Assembly (NCBI RefSeq): GCF_003334405.1
Contig: NZ_QOWM01000011.1
Origin: Escherichia coli
GTDB taxonomy: Bacteria; Pseudomonadota; Gammaproteobacteria; Enterobacterales; Enterobacteriaceae
Length of the DNA: 64,000 nt
Strand: one strand, 5' to 3'
The position numbers and the translations under genes were made by a program. Positions 5,358 through 53,953 of this stretch are shown here, piece after piece. Under the pieces are notes generated by a model. The model was not told the DNA's origin and searched no databases. It saw nothing but the letters and a program-made list of their open reading frames with translations. Within the stretch, counting starts at the first letter, position 1; each line of letters begins with the position of its first letter.

Positions 5358-6762
<1,405 letters not shown>

Positions 6763-17916: not shown

Positions 17917-17948
17917 CAAAAAACCCGCTTCAAAAAGCGGGTTTTTTA
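17917..17948. terminator. Bidirectional rho-independent terminator between tatE and lipA
   Basis: aaaaacccgcttcaaaaagcgggtttttt: 8-bp stem flanked by an A-run and a T-run. Confidence 0.8.
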
Positions 17949-34227: not shown

Positions 34228-34260
34228 TAGTCTGATTTCGCACAGCAATAAAGAGAATAT

Positions 34261-34293
34261 GGGCCGAATGAAATTCCCCGGCCCTTGTTTTTA
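34261..34293 (+). terminator. Putative intrinsic terminator after ybeL (between convergent ybeL and ybeQ)
   Basis: Stem gggccg/cggccc followed by ttgttttta. Confidence 0.5.
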
Positions 34294-34296
34294 TCT

Positions 34297-35280
34297 CTAC
34301 AGTAAATCTTCAGTCTCACGAATTTCCTGACTGACATCTCTGGTTCCGGATGACTGAACTTTACGATACAGGTCGAGAGCCTGTCGGAGATCGACAGGTC
34401 TTCCTTCTCCGTAGTGATACATAATGGCCAGGTTATACCAGGCAGTGGCGTCATTGCATTCAGCGGCTTTCGTAAACCATTCAAAGGCAGCCTGATAATC
34501 TTTCTCAACGCCTTGTCCGTGTTTATACATATAACCGATGTTGACGTAAGCGCCGACGCTCCCCTGAGCGGCAGCCTTCAGATACCAGTACATCGCTTGC
34601 TTATAGTCCTGGTCCACCCCTTCGCCAGCGTTATAATCCCATGCAATTTGAAACTGGGCGTGCCGATTACCCTGCTGTGCGCTTTTCAAATACCAGAATG
34701 CGGCGAGTGTCTTGTTTTGAGCAACGCCTTTTCCGTCTTCATAAAGATCGGCCAGATTGTTTTGCGCGTCACTATGGCCTTGTAATGCAGCTTGTTTGTA
34801 CCAGAAAAATGCCAGCGCATAGTCTTTTGCGACTCCGTTGCCATTTCTGTACATCCACCCAAGATTATTTTGCGCATAAGACATTCCGCTCTCCGCGGCT
34901 ATCTGATACCAGACAACCGCTTCTTTATAATTGGGGGCTTCTCCACGATCCAGTGTCCAGCCAAGGGCGTTGGAAGCGAAAGTATGGCCTTGTAGGGCAG
35001 CTTTTTTCAGCCAGAAGATGGCTTGCTCATTATCTTTATGACGGCTTTTATCCTCGGTATACTTTTGCCCTAAGGAATACTGTGCTTCACAATGACCTTG
35101 CTCAGCGGCCAGCTTCAGCCAGTAAAAGGCTTTTTCGTCGTCCGGAGAATCAATTGCGCTATCGCGATTATAATAAAACCCAACAATATATTGAGCCTCG
35201 CAATCGCCTTTTTCAGCACGTTCGATAATCTCATCTATTGATAAATTATCGCAGCAACTTGACGTGAAAATCATTATCAT
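34297..35280 (-). CDS. ybeQ: Sel1-like repeat (TPR-like) protein, no signal peptide
   Basis: 327-aa ORF with about eight repeats of the pattern A..W(Y)..AA.QG...AQ..LG..Y..G.GV..D. Confidence 0.85.
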   Translation of the reverse strand: MIMIFTSSCCDNLSIDEIIERAEKGDCEAQYIVGFYYNRDSAIDSPDDEKAFYWLKLAAEQGHCEAQYSLGQKYTEDKSRHKDNEQAIFWLKKAALQGHTFASNALGWTLDRGEAPNYKEAVVWYQIAAESGMSYAQNNLGWMYRNGNGVAKDYALAFFWYKQAALQGHSDAQNNLADLYEDGKGVAQNKTLAAFWYLKSAQQGNRHAQFQIAWDYNAGEGVDQDYKQAMYWYLKAAAQGSVGAYVNIGYMYKHGQGVEKDYQAAFEWFTKAAECNDATAWYNLAIMYHYGEGRPVDLRQALDLYRKVQSSGTRDVSQEIRETEDLL

Positions 35281-35437
35281 TTCCTTATGGTTGCAGATAA
35301 AACATATTATATTTTTATGTGTTCCATTTTTGCGTAAGCCTTATTTTATGCGTATTATGTCGCGTCAGAAAAGTATAAATAAACGAGCCTCGCAATGCGG
35401 CTAATATTCATTTAATGAATATTTAAGGATAAATTAT

Positions 35438-36145
35438 ATGGACATGGAGTCGCAAAAAATATTGTTTGCACTTTCCACTCCGATGGAAATACGCAATGAA
35501 TGCTGTTTACCTTCGCATTCATCACCCAAAATGTATTTAGGTACATGCTTTTTTGACCTTTCTTCCTCATGGGGAATTGATGACCGTGATGACCTGCTGC
35601 GCACAATTCACCGAATGATCGATAACGGTCATGCCGCTCGGTTGGCAGGGTTTTATCACCGCTGGTTTCGTTATTCGCCATGTGAATGGCGTGACTATCT
35701 TGCTGAACTAAATGAGCAAGGTCAGGCTTATGCGCAATTTGTCGCCAGCACCGCCGAATGCTGTGGCGAAGGGGGAATCAAAGCCTGGGATTATGTCCGG
35801 ATGGGTTTTTTAAGCCGAATGGGCGTACTTAATAACTGGTTGAGCGAAGAAGAAAGTCTATGGATCCAGTCGCGCATTCATCTACGGGCTCTACGTTATT
35901 ATAGTAACTGGCGGCAATACTTTGCCGGTTATACCTTTGGTCGGCAATATTGGCAGTCTCCCGAAGATGATCATCTGCCTTTATTACGCGAATTCTTAGC
36001 GCGTAAAGAATACGACGATTCCGGCAATGATATGTTTTATCAATTATTTGCCAGTGATGATGCGTATTACCCTACCTTGTCCTGGCAACCATTGGCTTAC
36101 TATTCTGCATGCCCGGAAACGCTTAAGGATATGAGCGACCTATGA
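35438..36145 (+). CDS. ybeR: DUF1266-family protein (paralog of ybeU)
   Basis: 235-aa ORF about 60% identical to the ybeU product by eye; stop overlaps the djlB start (ATGA). Confidence 0.85.
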
Positions 36146-37569
36146 AAAATTGCTGGAAGATCCTCGATATAGAGGAAACGACTGACGTCGATATTATCCG
36201 CCGCGCTTATCTGGCGCTGTTACCGTCCTTTCATCCAGAAACCGATCCGCAGGGTTTTAAACAACTTCGTCAGGCGTATGAGGAGGCGCTACGGATTGCG
36301 CAGTCGCCTGCTAAATCTGTTTGGCAACCAGAAGAATATGAGGTAGCAGAACATGAAATTCTGCTCGCCTTTCGTGCGTTACTTGCCTCTGATAGTGAAC
36401 GTTTTCTGCCCTCCGCCTGGCAGCGATTCATTCAGCAATTAAATTATTGCTCGATGGAGGAGATTGATGAATTACGCTGGTCGCTGTGCACAATCGCCAT
36501 GAACACTGCCCATTTATCCTTCGAGTGCGTGGTGTTATTAGCAGAAAGATTGCGGTGGTTACAGGAGGAAAATACCGGGGAAATAGACGAAGAAGAACTG
36601 GAATCCTTTTTATATGCCATTGCGAAGGGGAATGTTTTTAACTTCCAGACCATTCTGCATCTGCCCGTTGCCGTGCAAAATGACACCATCGATTTTTACC
36701 AAATGTTCGCTCGGATTTGGTCATCGCATCCACAATGGCTGACATTGTATTTAGCGCAACATCGCGCAGTGATTATCCCCGATGATGCAAAACTGCACAG
36801 AAATTTACTCCGCTGGTATAGCGCAGGTCGCCTGGATATCCCCGAACTTCTGGATTACGCCCAGTCATGGCGGGAAACTGAACCTGATAATGAAGATGCG
36901 CCTTATTATGAATACGCGCAACGCGTCTATTGTGGAGAAGGCGAAAGCCTGTTGGCAGAACTTTGTGACTACTGGCGCGAGTATCCCTCCACCCAGGCGG
37001 ATGCTTTAATGTTGCAATGGTGCCGTCAGCATCGGGTCGATTATTACCCATTACTGGTGATGATGATTGAAGCGCGTGATCTGGTTAACGATCAGGGAAA
37101 ACCGCTACTTTATGTCCCCGGCGACAGCGCCCGTACGCGTTTTCATTTATACGAAATACTCAGCGATGAAAAACTCTCTGCGCTGGGGCGTTCACTGGTC
37201 GAGATGGTTTTGCACAAAGGACGTAAGCCGCGGATCTCACTCACGCGTGATACAGAACATACCTTATGGCCATTATATCTAGTTGCCAAACAATTAGTGC
37301 AGGCCTGCCAACCTACAGAAGAATCATTAATGCCGATTGTGAGCCGCCTTGATGCAGAAAATCGTTGTCCACTGGAAGCATTAATTATTCGTCGATTATT
37401 AATTCAGGCGGCGAATTTTACCGAGAAGCAAACTGTTGAACCGGAGCCGCAACCGCAGCCAATGCCCGTTGACGATGGTGGGCCAGGCTGTCTGGGCATC
37501 ATTAAAATTATTTTCTATATTTTTATCTTTGCTGGTTTGATAGGGAAAATACTCCATCTGTTCGGGTGA
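36142..37569 (+). CDS. djlB: J-domain-like protein with a C-terminal transmembrane tail anchor (putative HscC co-chaperone)
   Basis: 475-aa ORF; N-terminal J-like helix pattern with HPE in place of HPD; C-terminal hydrophobic segment [20 protein letters not shown]. Confidence 0.85.
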
Positions 37570-37578
37570 CAGTCGACG

Positions 37579-38133
37579 TTAATGTGCGGGAAGCCCGGCA
37601 AGTAATCTTTCCGCATTTTTGTAATGTTGTTTGGCGGCCAGTTTTAACCATTTTTGAGATTCATAATGGTTAACATTAATACCTGAGCCATTTCTGTAGA
37701 TCAAACCTAAAGTATATTGAGCATGAGCATACCCTTGTTCAGCTGCTTCCTTATACCAGAGAATTGCTTTACGGGTGTCGGGTTTGACCCCCAGACCTTT
37801 GAGGTAGATCCACCCCAGTTTACTTTGCGCGCGTGGATTTTCCTGTTCCGCTGATTGCTCATACCAGTATCTCGCCTGTGTATAATCCAGTGGTTTACCG
37901 TCGCTACCATGAAGATAAAATTCTCCAAGGCGATATTGCGACGTTGAGTGACCATGAATCGCGGAAAGCTCCGTGGCTGCCGTGGTGAATGGAAGACTGC
38001 CCGGTGAGCTTAAATAATCAAAGGCATAATTCACCATGGCTTTATCACGCAACGTCGTTTTCTTGGGTTGGCTAATACAGGTAATTGCTGCAACTATAAA
38101 AATTGCGAATATATACATTAATTTTTTATTCAT
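37579..38133 (-). CDS. ybeT: Sel1-like repeat protein with an N-terminal signal peptide or anchor
   Basis: 184-aa ORF; N-terminal [19 protein letters not shown] followed by three Sel1-type repeats. Confidence 0.85.
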
Positions 38134-38234
38134 GTGTGAATGCTTCGATTTTCTTTTTATTTTGAAAGCGTCAAGTTTATACTCATCAATAATAAAAAAG
38201 TAGTCAGTTAATGCACTTAAGGGATTATTAACAA

Positions 38235-38942
38235 ATGAATAAGGAAGAACAATATCTTCTTTTTGCGCTTTCTGCGCCCATGGAAATACTTAATCAGGGT
38301 TGCAAACCCGCGCATGACTCGCCAAAAATGTATACTGGGATAAAAGAATTCGAGCTCTCATCATCCTGGGGAATAAATAATCGTGATGATTTAATTCAGA
38401 CTATTTATCAGATGACTGATGATGGTCATGCCAATGATTTAGCTGGCTTATATCTGACATGGCATCGCTCTTCCCCTGAAGAGTGGAAAGCATTAATTGC
38501 TGGTGGCTCGGAGAGAGGGTTGATTTATACCCAATTCGTTGCCCAAACCGCTATGTGCTGTGGGGAAGGGGGAATCAAAGCCTGGGATTATGTTCGAATG
38601 GGGTTTCTGTCACGGGTCGGTGTGCTCAACAAGTGGCTGACGGAAGAAGAGAGTTTATGGCTGCAATCGCGCGTCTATGTACGAGCTCACCATTACTATC
38701 ACAGCTGGATGCACTATTTTTCCGCCTATTCGTTAGGACGTCTCTACTGGCAATCTTCTCAGTGCGAAGACAACACTTCGCTACGCGAGGCGCTAACCCT
38801 GTACAAATACGATAGCGCCGGGAGTCGTATGTTCGAAGAGCTGGCAGCGGGAAGCGATCGTTTCTATGCCACGCTTCCCTGGCAGCCATTAACTGTCCAG
38901 TCTGAATGCCCGGTAACGCTTAAGGATGTGAGCGACCTATGA
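38235..38942 (+). CDS. ybeU: DUF1266-family protein (paralog of ybeR)
   Basis: 235-aa ORF; stop overlaps the djlC start (ATGA). Confidence 0.85.
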
Positions 38943-40390
38943 AAACATGTTGGCAAATCCTCGAAATTGAAAGCACGACGCAAATAGACATTATCCGCCA
39001 GGCTTATCTTGCTCGCTTACCGTTGTGTCATCCCGAAACCGATCCGCAAGGGTTTAAAGCATTACGCCAGGCCTATGAAGAGGCCCTGCGACTGGCGGTA
39101 AATCCTGTCGAGGAAGCAGATGATGAAGAAAAAGATGCTGCCGCTGAACATGAAATACTACGTGCATTCAGGACATTACTGGATTCAGAAAGTGATCGTT
39201 TTCAGCCTTCCGCCTGGCAGAAATTTATTCAGCAATTAAATACCTGGAACATGGAGGATGTCGATCAATTACGCTGGCCGCTGTGTGCAATCGCCATAGA
39301 AGCGCGATATCTTTCATTAAATTGTGCTTCTTTGCTGGCAGAGCGTTTGAACTGGCATTCATTTAATGACAGCGAAGGAATGGATGAGGAAGAAAGGGAG
39401 GCTTTTCTTGAGGCCATTCAGGCTGGTGATTGTTTCGATTTCCTTAGCCTTCTGGAATATCCCATTGCGTTGCAGAACCAGACTGTTGAGTATTACTTCG
39501 CGCTGGAACGTTGCTGCCGTTACCATCCTGACTATGTCACTGCGTTTTTGGCGATGGAAGGTCCGTGGTTAATTCCTGATGATGCAAAGTTACATCGCAA
39601 ACTGTTGCGCTGGTACAGCTCGGTGCAAACAGGTATGGCGGAACTCATTCCTGTCGCTCAACAGTGGCAAACGGAAGAACCAGAAAGCGAAGATGCCCGG
39701 TATTACTTGTGTGCACAACGTTTGTACTGCGGCGAGGGGGAAAGCCTGCTTGCCGATCTCTGCGCGTACTGGGAAAGTTACCCATCTACACAAGCTGATA
39801 ATTTGTTGTTGCAGTGGAGCAAGCGTCATTGCCCGGATTATTTCGCGTTATTAGTGATGGTTATCGAAGCGCGGAGCATGGTAGATGCGCAAGGTCAACC
39901 GCTGAAATATGTTCCTGGTGAGAGCGCCCGGACGCGGCTGTTATGGGCGGAGATTTTACATAGCGGAAAATTATCGCCGTTAGGTCAATCGTTTATTGAG
40001 TCGTTATTCTTCAAGCGCAAAGCATGGGCGTGGTGGAAATCGAGAGTCGGTAGCGAGACAGAGCAAGATTCACCGTTCCTGGATTTGTATCGGGTAGCGG
40101 AACAGGTAGTACTTGAAGCGTTTCCGAAACAAGAGATGCTGGCCCGTCTTAATACAAGGCTGGAAGGCGGAGATGCTCATCCATTAGAGGCCATTGTCAC
40201 CCGGATGCTTTTGACGAAAGTGAAACTCGAGCCGGAGGATGAAGATGTCGATGAGCCAACACCTGAAAATCATGAAGAAAAAAATGATGAGGGTGAAAAA
40301 CCACAGAGCATTACCAGCATTATCAAAATCAGTTTAACGGTGCTGGTGATAGGTTATGCTCTCGGCAAAATCGCGATGTTGTTTAGCTGA
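38939..40390 (+). CDS. djlC: J-domain-like protein with a C-terminal transmembrane tail anchor (putative HscC co-chaperone)
   Basis: 483-aa ORF paralogous to djlB; HPE motif; C-terminal hydrophobic segment [21 protein letters not shown]. Confidence 0.85.
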
Positions 40391-40410
40391 CGATGTGTTT
40401 TTTGCGCCGA

Positions 40411-40442
40411 TGCCGGATGCAGCGTTTACGCCGCATCCGGCA
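40411..40442. repeat. REP-like palindrome between convergent djlC and hscC
   Basis: tgccggatgcagcgtttacgccgcatccggca resembles the REP consensus (GCCGGATGCGGCG...). Confidence 0.45.
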
Positions 40443-40449
40443 GCCGTGT

Positions 40450-42120
40450 TTATGGGATCTCAATGGCTAAATAATCGCTCGCCCGCCGCCGAACTTCATC
40501 CACGCGGGCCATATCGTTTGACTGCAACGCCGCATCAAAATCGGTGATCACCCGGCCGATCTCTTCTCGCTCGTCACCCAGCGCCCGCGCCCACAACTCT
40601 TCCAGTTTGGCTTTAAAGGTGCGATTGATGAGCATATCGCGCGGATAAATTTTCAATGCGGATAACCGCGTCCGACTCTCTTCAATCTGCTGCGCGCTCA
40701 ATGTTACCGGGCTGTGGTTAATCACTCTGGACTTAACGCTGCCGTCTTCCAGAAGCACGTCAACTTCAAGCAACCCGTTGATATCATAACTAAAGCGAAT
40801 ATCAATCGACTGATAAGCCCCGGTTTTCTTCAACGGCACATCGAAGGATTCCACCAGAATGTTGTTTTTAACTTTGTGGTTTTCTCCCTGATAGACGTTA
40901 ACCGTAATTGAATCCTGTTCCGGGTGCATGGTTGAATAAGTTTCTACACGCGACACGGGCACAGTGGTGTTTCGTTCAATAATCGGCGAGAAAATGCCGG
41001 AAACGCCCTGGCGGTTAACTTCAACGCCCAACGAGTAAGGGCAAATATCAGTGAGGATTACCTCTTCAATATCTTCACTGCGTAAGCGGCAGGCGGCCTG
41101 GATTGCTGCGCCCAGCGCGACAATGGTGCTCGGATCGTAACTTTGATACGGTAATTTGCCAAACAGACGCACGGCGATTCGCTGCACCAGCGGCATTTGT
41201 GACGCGCCGCCAACCAGCACCAGACTGTCGATTTGACTCGGCTTCAGACGCGCATCGCGCAACGCCTGTTCAATCGGCACTCGCAAGCGATTGAGCAGCG
41301 GCAACCACAAATCTTCCAGTTCGTTCTCGTAAAATTCGCATTCCCGCGTTTCTTCCTGATACTGCCAGCGAATGTGCAATGGCGATTGATTGCTACATTT
41401 TGCCGCTTCCACACAGGCGTACAAGGCTGCCAGTTCACTCTCGTTAAGCGTGGTCCTGGCGACATCCGCGCGTTTTAAAACCTCATCGACCAGCATATGG
41501 GTAAAATCTTCGCCACCAAGAAAGTTGTCGCCAGCGGAGGCGTGAACTTCAATCACCGGCGTGGCGTACTCAAGCACCGTAACGTCAAACGTGCCGCCAC
41601 CGAGATCAAACACCAGCGAACGGGTATTTTGTTGGGTATGCAGGCCATACGCCATCGCAGCTGCTGTGGGTTCATTAATTAAGCGTACCGCATTTAACCC
41701 GGCTAACTCCGCTGCTAAACGGGTATGCTTGCGTTGTTCATCGCTGAAATAAGCCGGAACGGAGATCACCACATCTTTAATCGGACGTTGCAGAAATTCT
41801 TCGGCATCTTCTTTTAATGAGCGTAATACCAAAGAGGACAGTTCTGGCGCGTTAAATGTGTCGCTGCCTAACCGCCAGTTGGTATTACTGCCCATTGCAC
41901 GTTTAAATAACGCTGCCGTTTTATCCGGATGCGAAGTACGCCGTGATACAGCCGGTTTTCCGACTAAAATATGATTATTTTCATCCATGCTAATTATGGA
42001 TGGTGTTAAATATTCACCGAACTTATTTGGAATTAATTGCGCGGCACCGTCTTTCCAGACGGCAATTAAACTATTGGTAGTACCGAGATCGATACCAATG
42101 GCGAGTTCTGCATTATCCAT
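40450..42120 (-). CDS. hscC: Hsp70-family chaperone HscC (Hsc62)
   Basis: 556-aa ORF with Hsp70 signatures IDLGTTNS and DLGGGTFD; shorter than DnaK. Confidence 0.9.
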   Translation of the reverse strand: MDNAELAIGIDLGTTNSLIAVWKDGAAQLIPNKFGEYLTPSIISMDENNHILVGKPAVSRRTSHPDKTAALFKRAMGSNTNWRLGSDTFNAPELSSLVLRSLKEDAEEFLQRPIKDVVISVPAYFSDEQRKHTRLAAELAGLNAVRLINEPTAAAMAYGLHTQQNTRSLVFDLGGGTFDVTVLEYATPVIEVHASAGDNFLGGEDFTHMLVDEVLKRADVARTTLNESELAALYACVEAAKCSNQSPLHIRWQYQEETRECEFYENELEDLWLPLLNRLRVPIEQALRDARLKPSQIDSLVLVGGASQMPLVQRIAVRLFGKLPYQSYDPSTIVALGAAIQAACRLRSEDIEEVILTDICPYSLGVEVNRQGVSGIFSPIIERNTTVPVSRVETYSTMHPEQDSITVNVYQGENHKVKNNILVESFDVPLKKTGAYQSIDIRFSYDINGLLEVDVLLEDGSVKSRVINHSPVTLSAQQIEESRTRLSALKIYPRDMLINRTFKAKLEELWARALGDEREEIGRVITDFDAALQSNDMARVDEVRRRASDYLAIEIP

Positions 42121-53925: not shown

Positions 53926-53953
53926 CAAAAAGCTCGCCGAAGCGAGCTTTTTT
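53926..53953. terminator. Bidirectional rho-independent terminator between ubiF and the tRNA operon
   Basis: aaaaagctcgccgaagcgagctttttt: 7-bp stem, GNRA-like loop, flanking A- and T-runs. Confidence 0.8.

Follow-up and report, generated by a model that had tools for sequence, protein, structure and literature searches.

Junction and neighbourhood of djlB and ybeT

The Escherichia coli genes djlB and ybeT face each other in the middle of the ybeQ-ybeR-djlB / ybeT-ybeU-djlC-hscC region, with their stop codons separated by a spacer of a few nucleotides (Table 1). The window, by which we mean the whole 64,000-nucleotide stretch of DNA analysed, is E. coli chromosome with 99.9-100% identity to K-12-type strains, and its coordinates run one-to-one with NZ_CP012126.1 631533-681532. 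An earlier note on this DNA had placed the two stops only 9 nt apart, and we obtained the same ends and the same gap from the sequence itself, from the list of open reading frames and from RefSeq, including the RefSeq annotation of an identical K-12-type E. coli chromosome. The note had further described the spacer as carrying a GTCGAC palindrome and neither a hairpin nor a U-tract, and within the 9 nt this description is correct. On the djlB side, the start codon of djlB overlaps the stop codon of ybeR by 4 nt, and because of this overlap ybeR and djlB probably form a single operon. DjlB, like DjlC, is listed as a tail-anchored protein in a review (PMC8215388). The DNA beside the junction is T-rich on the plus strand and A-rich on the minus strand because it holds the codons of the hydrophobic tail anchor of DjlB.

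Table 1. Genes and sequence features at and around the djlB/ybeT junction (window positions)
Feature	Positions	Strand	Basis or remark
ybeQ	34297-35274	-	RefSeq
ybeR	35438-36145	+	RefSeq
djlB CDS	36142-37569	+	ORF list, RefSeq; J-domain, tail-anchored co-chaperone
DjlB hydrophobic C-terminal tail anchor codons (27 residues)	37486-37566	+	Translation; tail anchor per review
Untranslated RNA past ybeT stop, first ~100 nt, candidate Rho loading region	37475-37578	-	Composition, folds
djlB stop TGA	37567-37569	+	Sequence, ORF list, RefSeq
Spacer CAGTCGACG, 9 nt, with GTCGAC at 37572-37577	37570-37578		Sequence
ybeT stop TAA (TTA on plus strand)	37579-37581	-	Sequence, ORF list, RefSeq
ybeT CDS	37579-38133	-	Sel1/TPR repeat protein with N-terminal hydrophobic segment
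Candidate weak intrinsic terminator hairpin for ybeR-djlB	37584-37616	+	Folds, hairpin+T5 scan
T5 run (U-tract)	37616-37620	+	Abuts hairpin; followed by GTAATGTTGTTT / GUAAUGUUGUUU
ybeU	38235-38942	+	RefSeq
djlC	38939-40390	+	RefSeq
hscC	40450-42120	-	RefSeq

The tight arrangement is retained well beyond the strain at hand. A gap of 9 nt was found in six further E. coli strains, picked down the identity ranking, and also in Escherichia whittamii, Escherichia sp. E1V33 and Escherichia sp. MOD1-EC7003, and the order of all seven genes is intact in these same six strains and three other Escherichia species. The length of the spacer is constant and its letters differ in other Escherichia (GGTCGACTT and CGCCGACTG, read on the ybeT strand). 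Judged by these genomes, the 9-nt junction is evolutionarily stable across Escherichia.

The genes on the two sides of the junction resemble each other in pairs, with 59% identity between YbeR and YbeU, 50% between DjlB and DjlC and about 36% between YbeQ and YbeT. Each side pairs a Sel1 gene with two genes of the opposite strand, a DUF1266 gene and a J-domain gene, which overlap each other by 4 nt in both cases. From these protein comparisons, the junction is the seam of two old tandem paralogous modules. Against NCBIfam the proteins of the locus gave sub-threshold Sel1/TPR similarities only. The region was also considered as an anti-phage defence system and rejected, as PADLOC families were unmatched save for weak, repeat-level matches of the Sel1 proteins. 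Likewise, ybeT had come up as a candidate in a phage TraDIS study, and a knockout in the same study did not confirm it.

Natural deletions end close to the junction. Among 4298 matching E. coli genomes about 600 cover the query in part only, and all four genomes that we sampled at 63% coverage share a breakpoint at window position 37442. In the one deletion genome that was inspected, ybeR is missing altogether and ybeQ and djlB for the most part; what remains of djlB is its last 126 nt, followed by the 9-nt gap and an intact ybeT. Strain 2/0 (NZ_CP023853.1) is an example of a natural isolate with the deletion of ybeQ', ybeR and djlB. Since ybeT is intact in a genome that has lost the djlB side, we consider that ybeT does not depend on converging djlB transcription.

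The window contains 9 copies of GTCGAC where 13.1 would be expected, and the palindrome of the spacer reads GCCGAC in Escherichia sp. MOD1-EC7003. It is thus present at chance frequency and is unconserved, and we regard it as incidental. A REP or other palindromic spacer element was dismissed on the same grounds, as this 6-bp palindrome is all that the spacer carries, and no Rfam family matched at the junction. A REP-like hairpin does occur in the gap between djlC and hscC, and not at the djlB/ybeT junction.

Candidate termination signals on the two strands

A spacer of 9 nt is too short for transcription to end in it. Neither RNA polymerase can finish within the spacer, and transcription of both genes would therefore have to carry each transcript into the coding region of the other, which upholds what the earlier note had concluded from the geometry; a short 3' overlap of the two transcripts is likely. 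Its statement that the junction has no terminator stands for the 9 nt themselves but not for the DNA beyond them, where a 10-bp hairpin followed by TTTTT begins 15 nt past the djlB TGA, within the last 13 codons of ybeT. The arms of this hairpin (5' arm 37584-37593, 3' arm 37607-37616) enclose a 13-nt loop (37594-37606), and its stem of 10 pairs, of which two are G-U and three A-U, folds with an energy of -12.1 kcal/mol and stem pair probabilities of 0.79-1.0. The first T of the T5 run can pair with G37584. Read on the opposite strand the run is a Lys-Asn of YbeT, and it is invariant across all 10 aligned Escherichia sequences. The site thus has both the U run and the placement after the djlB stop by which an intrinsic terminator is recognised. 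As a side observation, its 13-nt loop is larger than the loops of typical E. coli terminators.

The terminator scan of the tool used here reported nothing at the junction; it was restricted to loops of 3-8 nt, and the hairpin was missed because of this limit. We therefore rely on a wider scan, applied to positions 1-50000 on both strands, for hairpins that have an energy of -10 kcal/mol or lower and a T5 run directly next to them. It returned 25 sites, 13 of them inside genes when the focal site is excluded, which amounts to an in-gene background of about one site per 7 kb of strand. At this density, a given stop codon would have an in-gene site starting within 60 nt of it with a chance of about 1%. 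In the sites that lie 20-65 nt past same-strand stops one recognises the terminators of ahpF, uspG, citT, cspE, tatE, lipA, rlpA and ybeL.

The most serious competitor to a working terminator is that the hairpin and U5 merely fall out of the coding of the YbeT C-terminus and that Rho alone ends both transcripts. Several measurements are in its favour. The hairpin does not stand out from shuffled sequence (z -1.42; 24 of 200 shuffles fold equally well), and 37-46% of synonymous recodings of the last 15 ybeT codons match or beat the hairpin with its U5, so that the codon choice of ybeT is not tuned for it. Nor are the stem sites more conserved than nearby ybeT codons among the 10 Escherichia sequences. 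The loop is large, and its bases can join the 5' arm in a rival early fold of -5 to -6.4 kcal/mol before the 3' arm has been made. Furthermore, no recognisable terminator in either direction was found in five of the six other tight convergent pairs sampled (see below), so that Rho-type or other termination must be frequent at such junctions. On the other hand, a start 15 nt past the stop agrees with the placement of the real terminators in the window and has the chance of about 1% given above, and the T5 run does not vary. The substitutions point the same way: the four that fall in the stem among the 10 sequences (37587 C>T, 37590 G>A, 37591 A>G and 37615 A>G) all keep the plus-strand pairing, while three of the four break that of the minus strand. 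Of the 20 transitions possible in the stem 12 are compatible with pairing, and by our own estimate four compatible changes out of four have p about 0.13, so that with only four substitutions covariation support for the hairpin is not significant. Weighing these points together, we consider a purely accidental hairpin rather unlikely, and take 37584-37616 with its U5 as a candidate terminator of ybeR-djlB that is plausible but weak.

The situation on the minus strand is different, as no intrinsic terminator, that is, a stem-loop with a U run, was found within about 150 nt past the ybeT stop by either the tool scan or the wider scan. The nearest weak minus-strand candidate of the tool scan lies at 37317-37298, 262 nt downstream of the ybeT stop, and on the minus strand 37440-37578 folds no better than shuffled sequence (z +0.45). 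The same hairpin that follows djlB precedes the stop when it is read in the direction of ybeT; there it folds with -7.6 kcal/mol (z -0.3), and the letters after it are AUUAACGUCGACUG / AUUAACGUCG, in which there is no U run. As the minus strand offers a weak fold and no U run, the site is not a bidirectional intrinsic terminator.

Rho loads on untranslated RNA that is G-poor and unstructured. The first hundred nucleotides or so of RNA past the ybeT stop (37475-37578) are A-rich, antisense to the djlB tail-anchor codons and devoid of any hairpin or U-tract, with 13-14% G, 19-23% C and a C/G ratio of 1.36-1.80. The highest of these ratios, 1.80, belongs to the 78-nt segment 37552-37475 and exceeds the 95th percentile of the window (1.67). 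Because this RNA is G-poor, unstructured and untranslated, its composition suggests that the ybeT transcript is likely ended by Rho.

Expression of the two genes and frequency of tight convergent pairs

The earlier note had proposed that converging transcription allows the two modules to be coupled through antisense RNA or transcriptional interference. Stated in full, there would be no effective terminator either way, and long read-through would couple the modules by antisense RNA or by collisions, in the manner of an excludon. The junction does offer some ground for this, as a terminator cannot fit into the 9-nt gap, ybeT lacks a recognisable intrinsic terminator and the djlB hairpin is weak. 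Published transcript data, however, show very little RNA from which such coupling could arise. Total RNA over ybeR, djlB, ybeT and ybeU amounts to at most about 7 RPM on either strand, as compared with 411 for leuS (PMC7373196, Table S1c). Double-stranded RNA captured with p19 gave 2-11 RPM over djlB and 2-9 RPM over ybeT (Table S1b of PMC7373196), against 28-80 RPM over ybeQ and up to 344 over thrA in the same study (PMC7373196). Sense and antisense reads over djlB and ybeT are similar, which would speak for coupling, though they are very low; moreover, the strand columns of Tables S1c and S1b of PMC7373196 conflict for these genes, and we made no use of the split into sense and antisense. 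At the protein level DjlB, DjlC and HscC lie under proteomic detection in exponential growth (PMC8215388).

Expression of the locus can rise. On over-production of SlyA, ybeT was the most raised transcript (4.1-fold) and ybeU-djlC rose 2.8-fold, and both ybeT and ybeU-djlC are in the listed H-NS regulon (PMC5797941). With 36-37% G+C, both divergent promoter regions are rich in A and T. Both genes of the junction are very weakly expressed and H-NS-associated, and the inducibility of ybeT counts on the side of coupling to the extent that convergent traffic could increase in some conditions. Maps of transcript ends were consulted as well: the searchable tables of PMC7815308, PMC12207403 and PMC6131387 hold no entries for djlB or ybeT 3' ends, and the bicyclomycin table of PMC7815308 lists no minus-strand site between mrdA and hscC, which is uninformative at such low expression.

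How unusual a gap of 9 nt is was judged from all convergent CDS pairs in four 50-kb segments of a single annotated E. coli chromosome. In these 200 kb, 8 of 32 convergent pairs are at most 9 nt apart or overlap, namely ydcY/ydcZ (gap 0), ydcD/yncO (-86), pptA/yddH (-4), yfeH/ypeB (-4), hemF/eutR (5), rtcR/glpR (-19), ybdR/yldA (3) and djlB/ybeT itself (9). Such tightness is found in about a quarter of the E. coli convergent pairs sampled, and the 9-nt gap is ordinary. Among the six other tight pairs looked at for terminators, it is yfeH whose terminator sits inside the partner gene, ypeB. As tight convergent pairs are common and most of those sampled are without recognisable terminators, the geometry alone implies no regulation.

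Taken together, the low RNA, the low yield of captured double-stranded RNA, the undetected DjlB and the commonness of tight pairs leave the proposed regulatory coupling unsupported. The intact ybeT of the inspected genome that lacks most of ybeQ, ybeR and djlB weighs against it too, and we regard coupling of the two modules by long read-through as improbable.

Interpretation and likeness to known systems

The reading that we favour, to which we give a probability of roughly 60%, is that djlB and ybeT form an ordinary tight convergent junction, at which the overlap of the transcripts is a by-product of compact gene packing and not a control device. On this reading ybeR-djlB transcripts would run past the TGA and a fraction of them would stop at the hairpin 37584-37616 with its U5, giving djlB 3' ends near 37620-37624, about 40-45 nt into ybeT. 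The RNA that reads through, untranslated and antisense to ybeT, would be ended by Rho. In the opposite direction, ybeT transcripts would enter the antisense strand of the djlB tail-anchor codons and would most probably be ended by Rho within roughly 100-300 nt, so that the djlB and ybeT transcripts would share a short complementary 3' segment. With promoters that are weak or H-NS-silenced in laboratory conditions, collisions of polymerases and RNA duplexes would both be rare; that weak promoters make simultaneous converging polymerases rare is argued from general transcription rates.

Two further proposals receive very little credence from us. One could imagine that the last 13 codons of ybeT double as the ybeR-djlB terminator and that, once SlyA, for instance, relieves H-NS silencing, transcription of ybeT proceeds antisense through the tail-anchor codons of djlB and lowers DjlB output, switching the cell from a first co-chaperone module, ybeR-djlB, to a second, ybeT and ybeU-djlC, in the service of HscC; we mention this as a speculation with hardly any chance of being right. 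Bidirectional termination driven by collision, in which converging polymerases would be halted where the nascent hairpin sets the position, agrees with the convergence of the genes and with a stem-loop at the junction, which the model requires to fix the collision point, but it is highly improbable here, as the model needs trailing polymerases and is more efficient for highly expressed pairs whereas expression of djlB and ybeT is very low, and the minus-strand hairpin is weak with no U-rich run after it.

What follows for the biology is modest. The junction matters little, and its main use is for calibration: facing genes in E. coli routinely end within a few bases of each other, and such closeness is no regulatory flag by itself. 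If the hairpin works, it would add one more coding sequence that bears a signal for the opposite strand, and it would show where the transcripts of ybeR-djlB, a little-studied operon of the HscC chaperone system, have their 3' end.

Among the systems with which the junction can be compared, the overlapping bidirectional terminators of convergent genes share with djlB/ybeT the convergence and the stem-loop at the junction. According to a later preprint, such terminators were proposed for many E. coli pairs, with the stem-loop fixing the collision point, and termination by collision has a higher efficiency in highly expressed pairs and needs trailing polymerases (Ju et al. 2019, as cited in bioRxiv 10.1101/2022.10.23.513370). 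As far as that account describes the type, djlB/ybeT differs from it in that the second strand has no U-rich run, the hairpin of the minus strand is weak and expression is low. The canonical intrinsic terminators of the window (cspE, tatE/lipA, ahpF, uspG) resemble the djlB site in having a stem-loop and then a U run, 15-65 nt past the stop. They are, however, intergenic, with loops of 3-6 nt and in several cases GC-rich stems that reach -21 to -24 kcal/mol, whereas the djlB site lies in coding DNA, its loop measures 13 nt, its stem includes two G-U and three A-U pairs, and a rival fold can form early. Excludons are defined by extended antisense overlap and by demonstrated reciprocal effects on expression. 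They have in common with djlB/ybeT that the transcripts of opposite-strand neighbours must overlap, but the overlap expected at djlB/ybeT is short, and both total RNA and captured double-stranded RNA are low over the two genes. Tight pairs of the yfeH/ypeB type are also comparable; the djlB hairpin, with its 13-nt loop, is weaker than that of yfeH (-12 as against -16 kcal/mol), and the partner of djlB, ybeT, has no recognisable terminator. Like djlB/ybeT, pairs of this type have stops that lie a few nucleotides apart or overlap, and carry a hairpin with a U-run inside the 3' coding end of the partner gene.

Tandem paralogous modules around djlB and ybeT

The segment from 34297 to 40390 of the window consists of two tandem paralogous modules, and in both of them a Sel1 gene lies on one strand while the DUF1266 and J-domain genes lie on the opposite strand. 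Identity between the module paralogues is 59% for YbeR/YbeU, 50% for DjlB/DjlC and about 36% for YbeQ/YbeT. When E. coli was compared with three other Escherichia species, the module proteins showed 82–97% identity and the flanking HscC, RihA and YbeL proteins 97–100% with the same three species.

Deletion and insertion in other genomes

Using the djlB/ybeT stretch (window 37000–38200) as query, we found matches in 4298 E. coli genomes, 3691 of them with coverage of at least 80%, and many E. coli genomes matched only partially. All four of the genomes sampled, each with 63% query coverage, shared a breakpoint at window position 37442. Gene content was read in one strain, 2/0 (NZ_CP023853.1), where the deletion takes most of ybeQ, the whole of ybeR and most of djlB; 126 nt remain at the 3' end of djlB, the 9-nt gap is retained and ybeT is intact.

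Separately, in E. coli ET650 (NZ_CP100936.1) an annotated IS1 family transposase separates the query match into two pieces; this is an IS1 insertion somewhere within the djlB/ybeT stretch of this strain. Residues 20–171 of E. coli YbeT also have a 99% identical match encoded on a 458-bp contig of a Staphylococcus cornubiensis assembly; this contig is most likely a contamination of that assembly.

Hairpins elsewhere in the window

The table lists hairpins at four other places in the window. The one between djlC and hscC had folding energies of −28.7 (z −3.6) and −31.4 kcal/mol (z −6.1) on the plus and minus strands, respectively, carried a U run on neither side and gave sub-threshold Rfam matches to naRNA4. 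For the ybeL/ybeQ hairpin, the plus-strand form is followed by T5 in the hairpin+T5 scan and the minus-strand form (34284–34261) came from the tool terminator scan.

Hairpins and segment affected by the deletion (L001, a matching locus)
Feature	Window position	Position in L001	Strand	Context	Basis
REP-like hairpin, very stable	40404–40449		both	59-nt djlC/hscC gap	folding
Single hairpin, terminator-like on both strands	34257–34288		+/−	69-nt ybeL/ybeQ gap	
Perfect bidirectional terminator-like hairpin	17923–17942		both	tatE/lipA gap; T5–6 run on each strand	
Perfect bidirectional terminator-like hairpin	53931–53948		both	T5–6 run on each strand	
Segment affected by the deletion	34297–37441	5663–6128			genome comparison

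Published data and regulation

In Table S1c of PMC7373196 the strand column for rows b0643–b0650 contradicts RefSeq as well as that paper's own Table S1b (djlB, for example, is entered as '−' and ybeT as '+'), and therefore the sense and antisense columns are unreliable for these genes. When survival of infection by phage Arnold was assayed by TraDIS, ybeT ranked among the top hits; the corresponding Keio knockout, however, behaved as wild type (bioRxiv 10.1101/2025.12.01.691526). ybeT is also included in the OmrA target list of PMC3318445. Furthermore, ybeT and ybeU-djlC are listed as H-NS regulon members and respond to SlyA (PMC5797941), and the fall in G+C to 36–37% at the divergent ybeQ/ybeR (35000–35499) and ybeT/ybeU (38000–38499) promoter regions fits with this listing and response.
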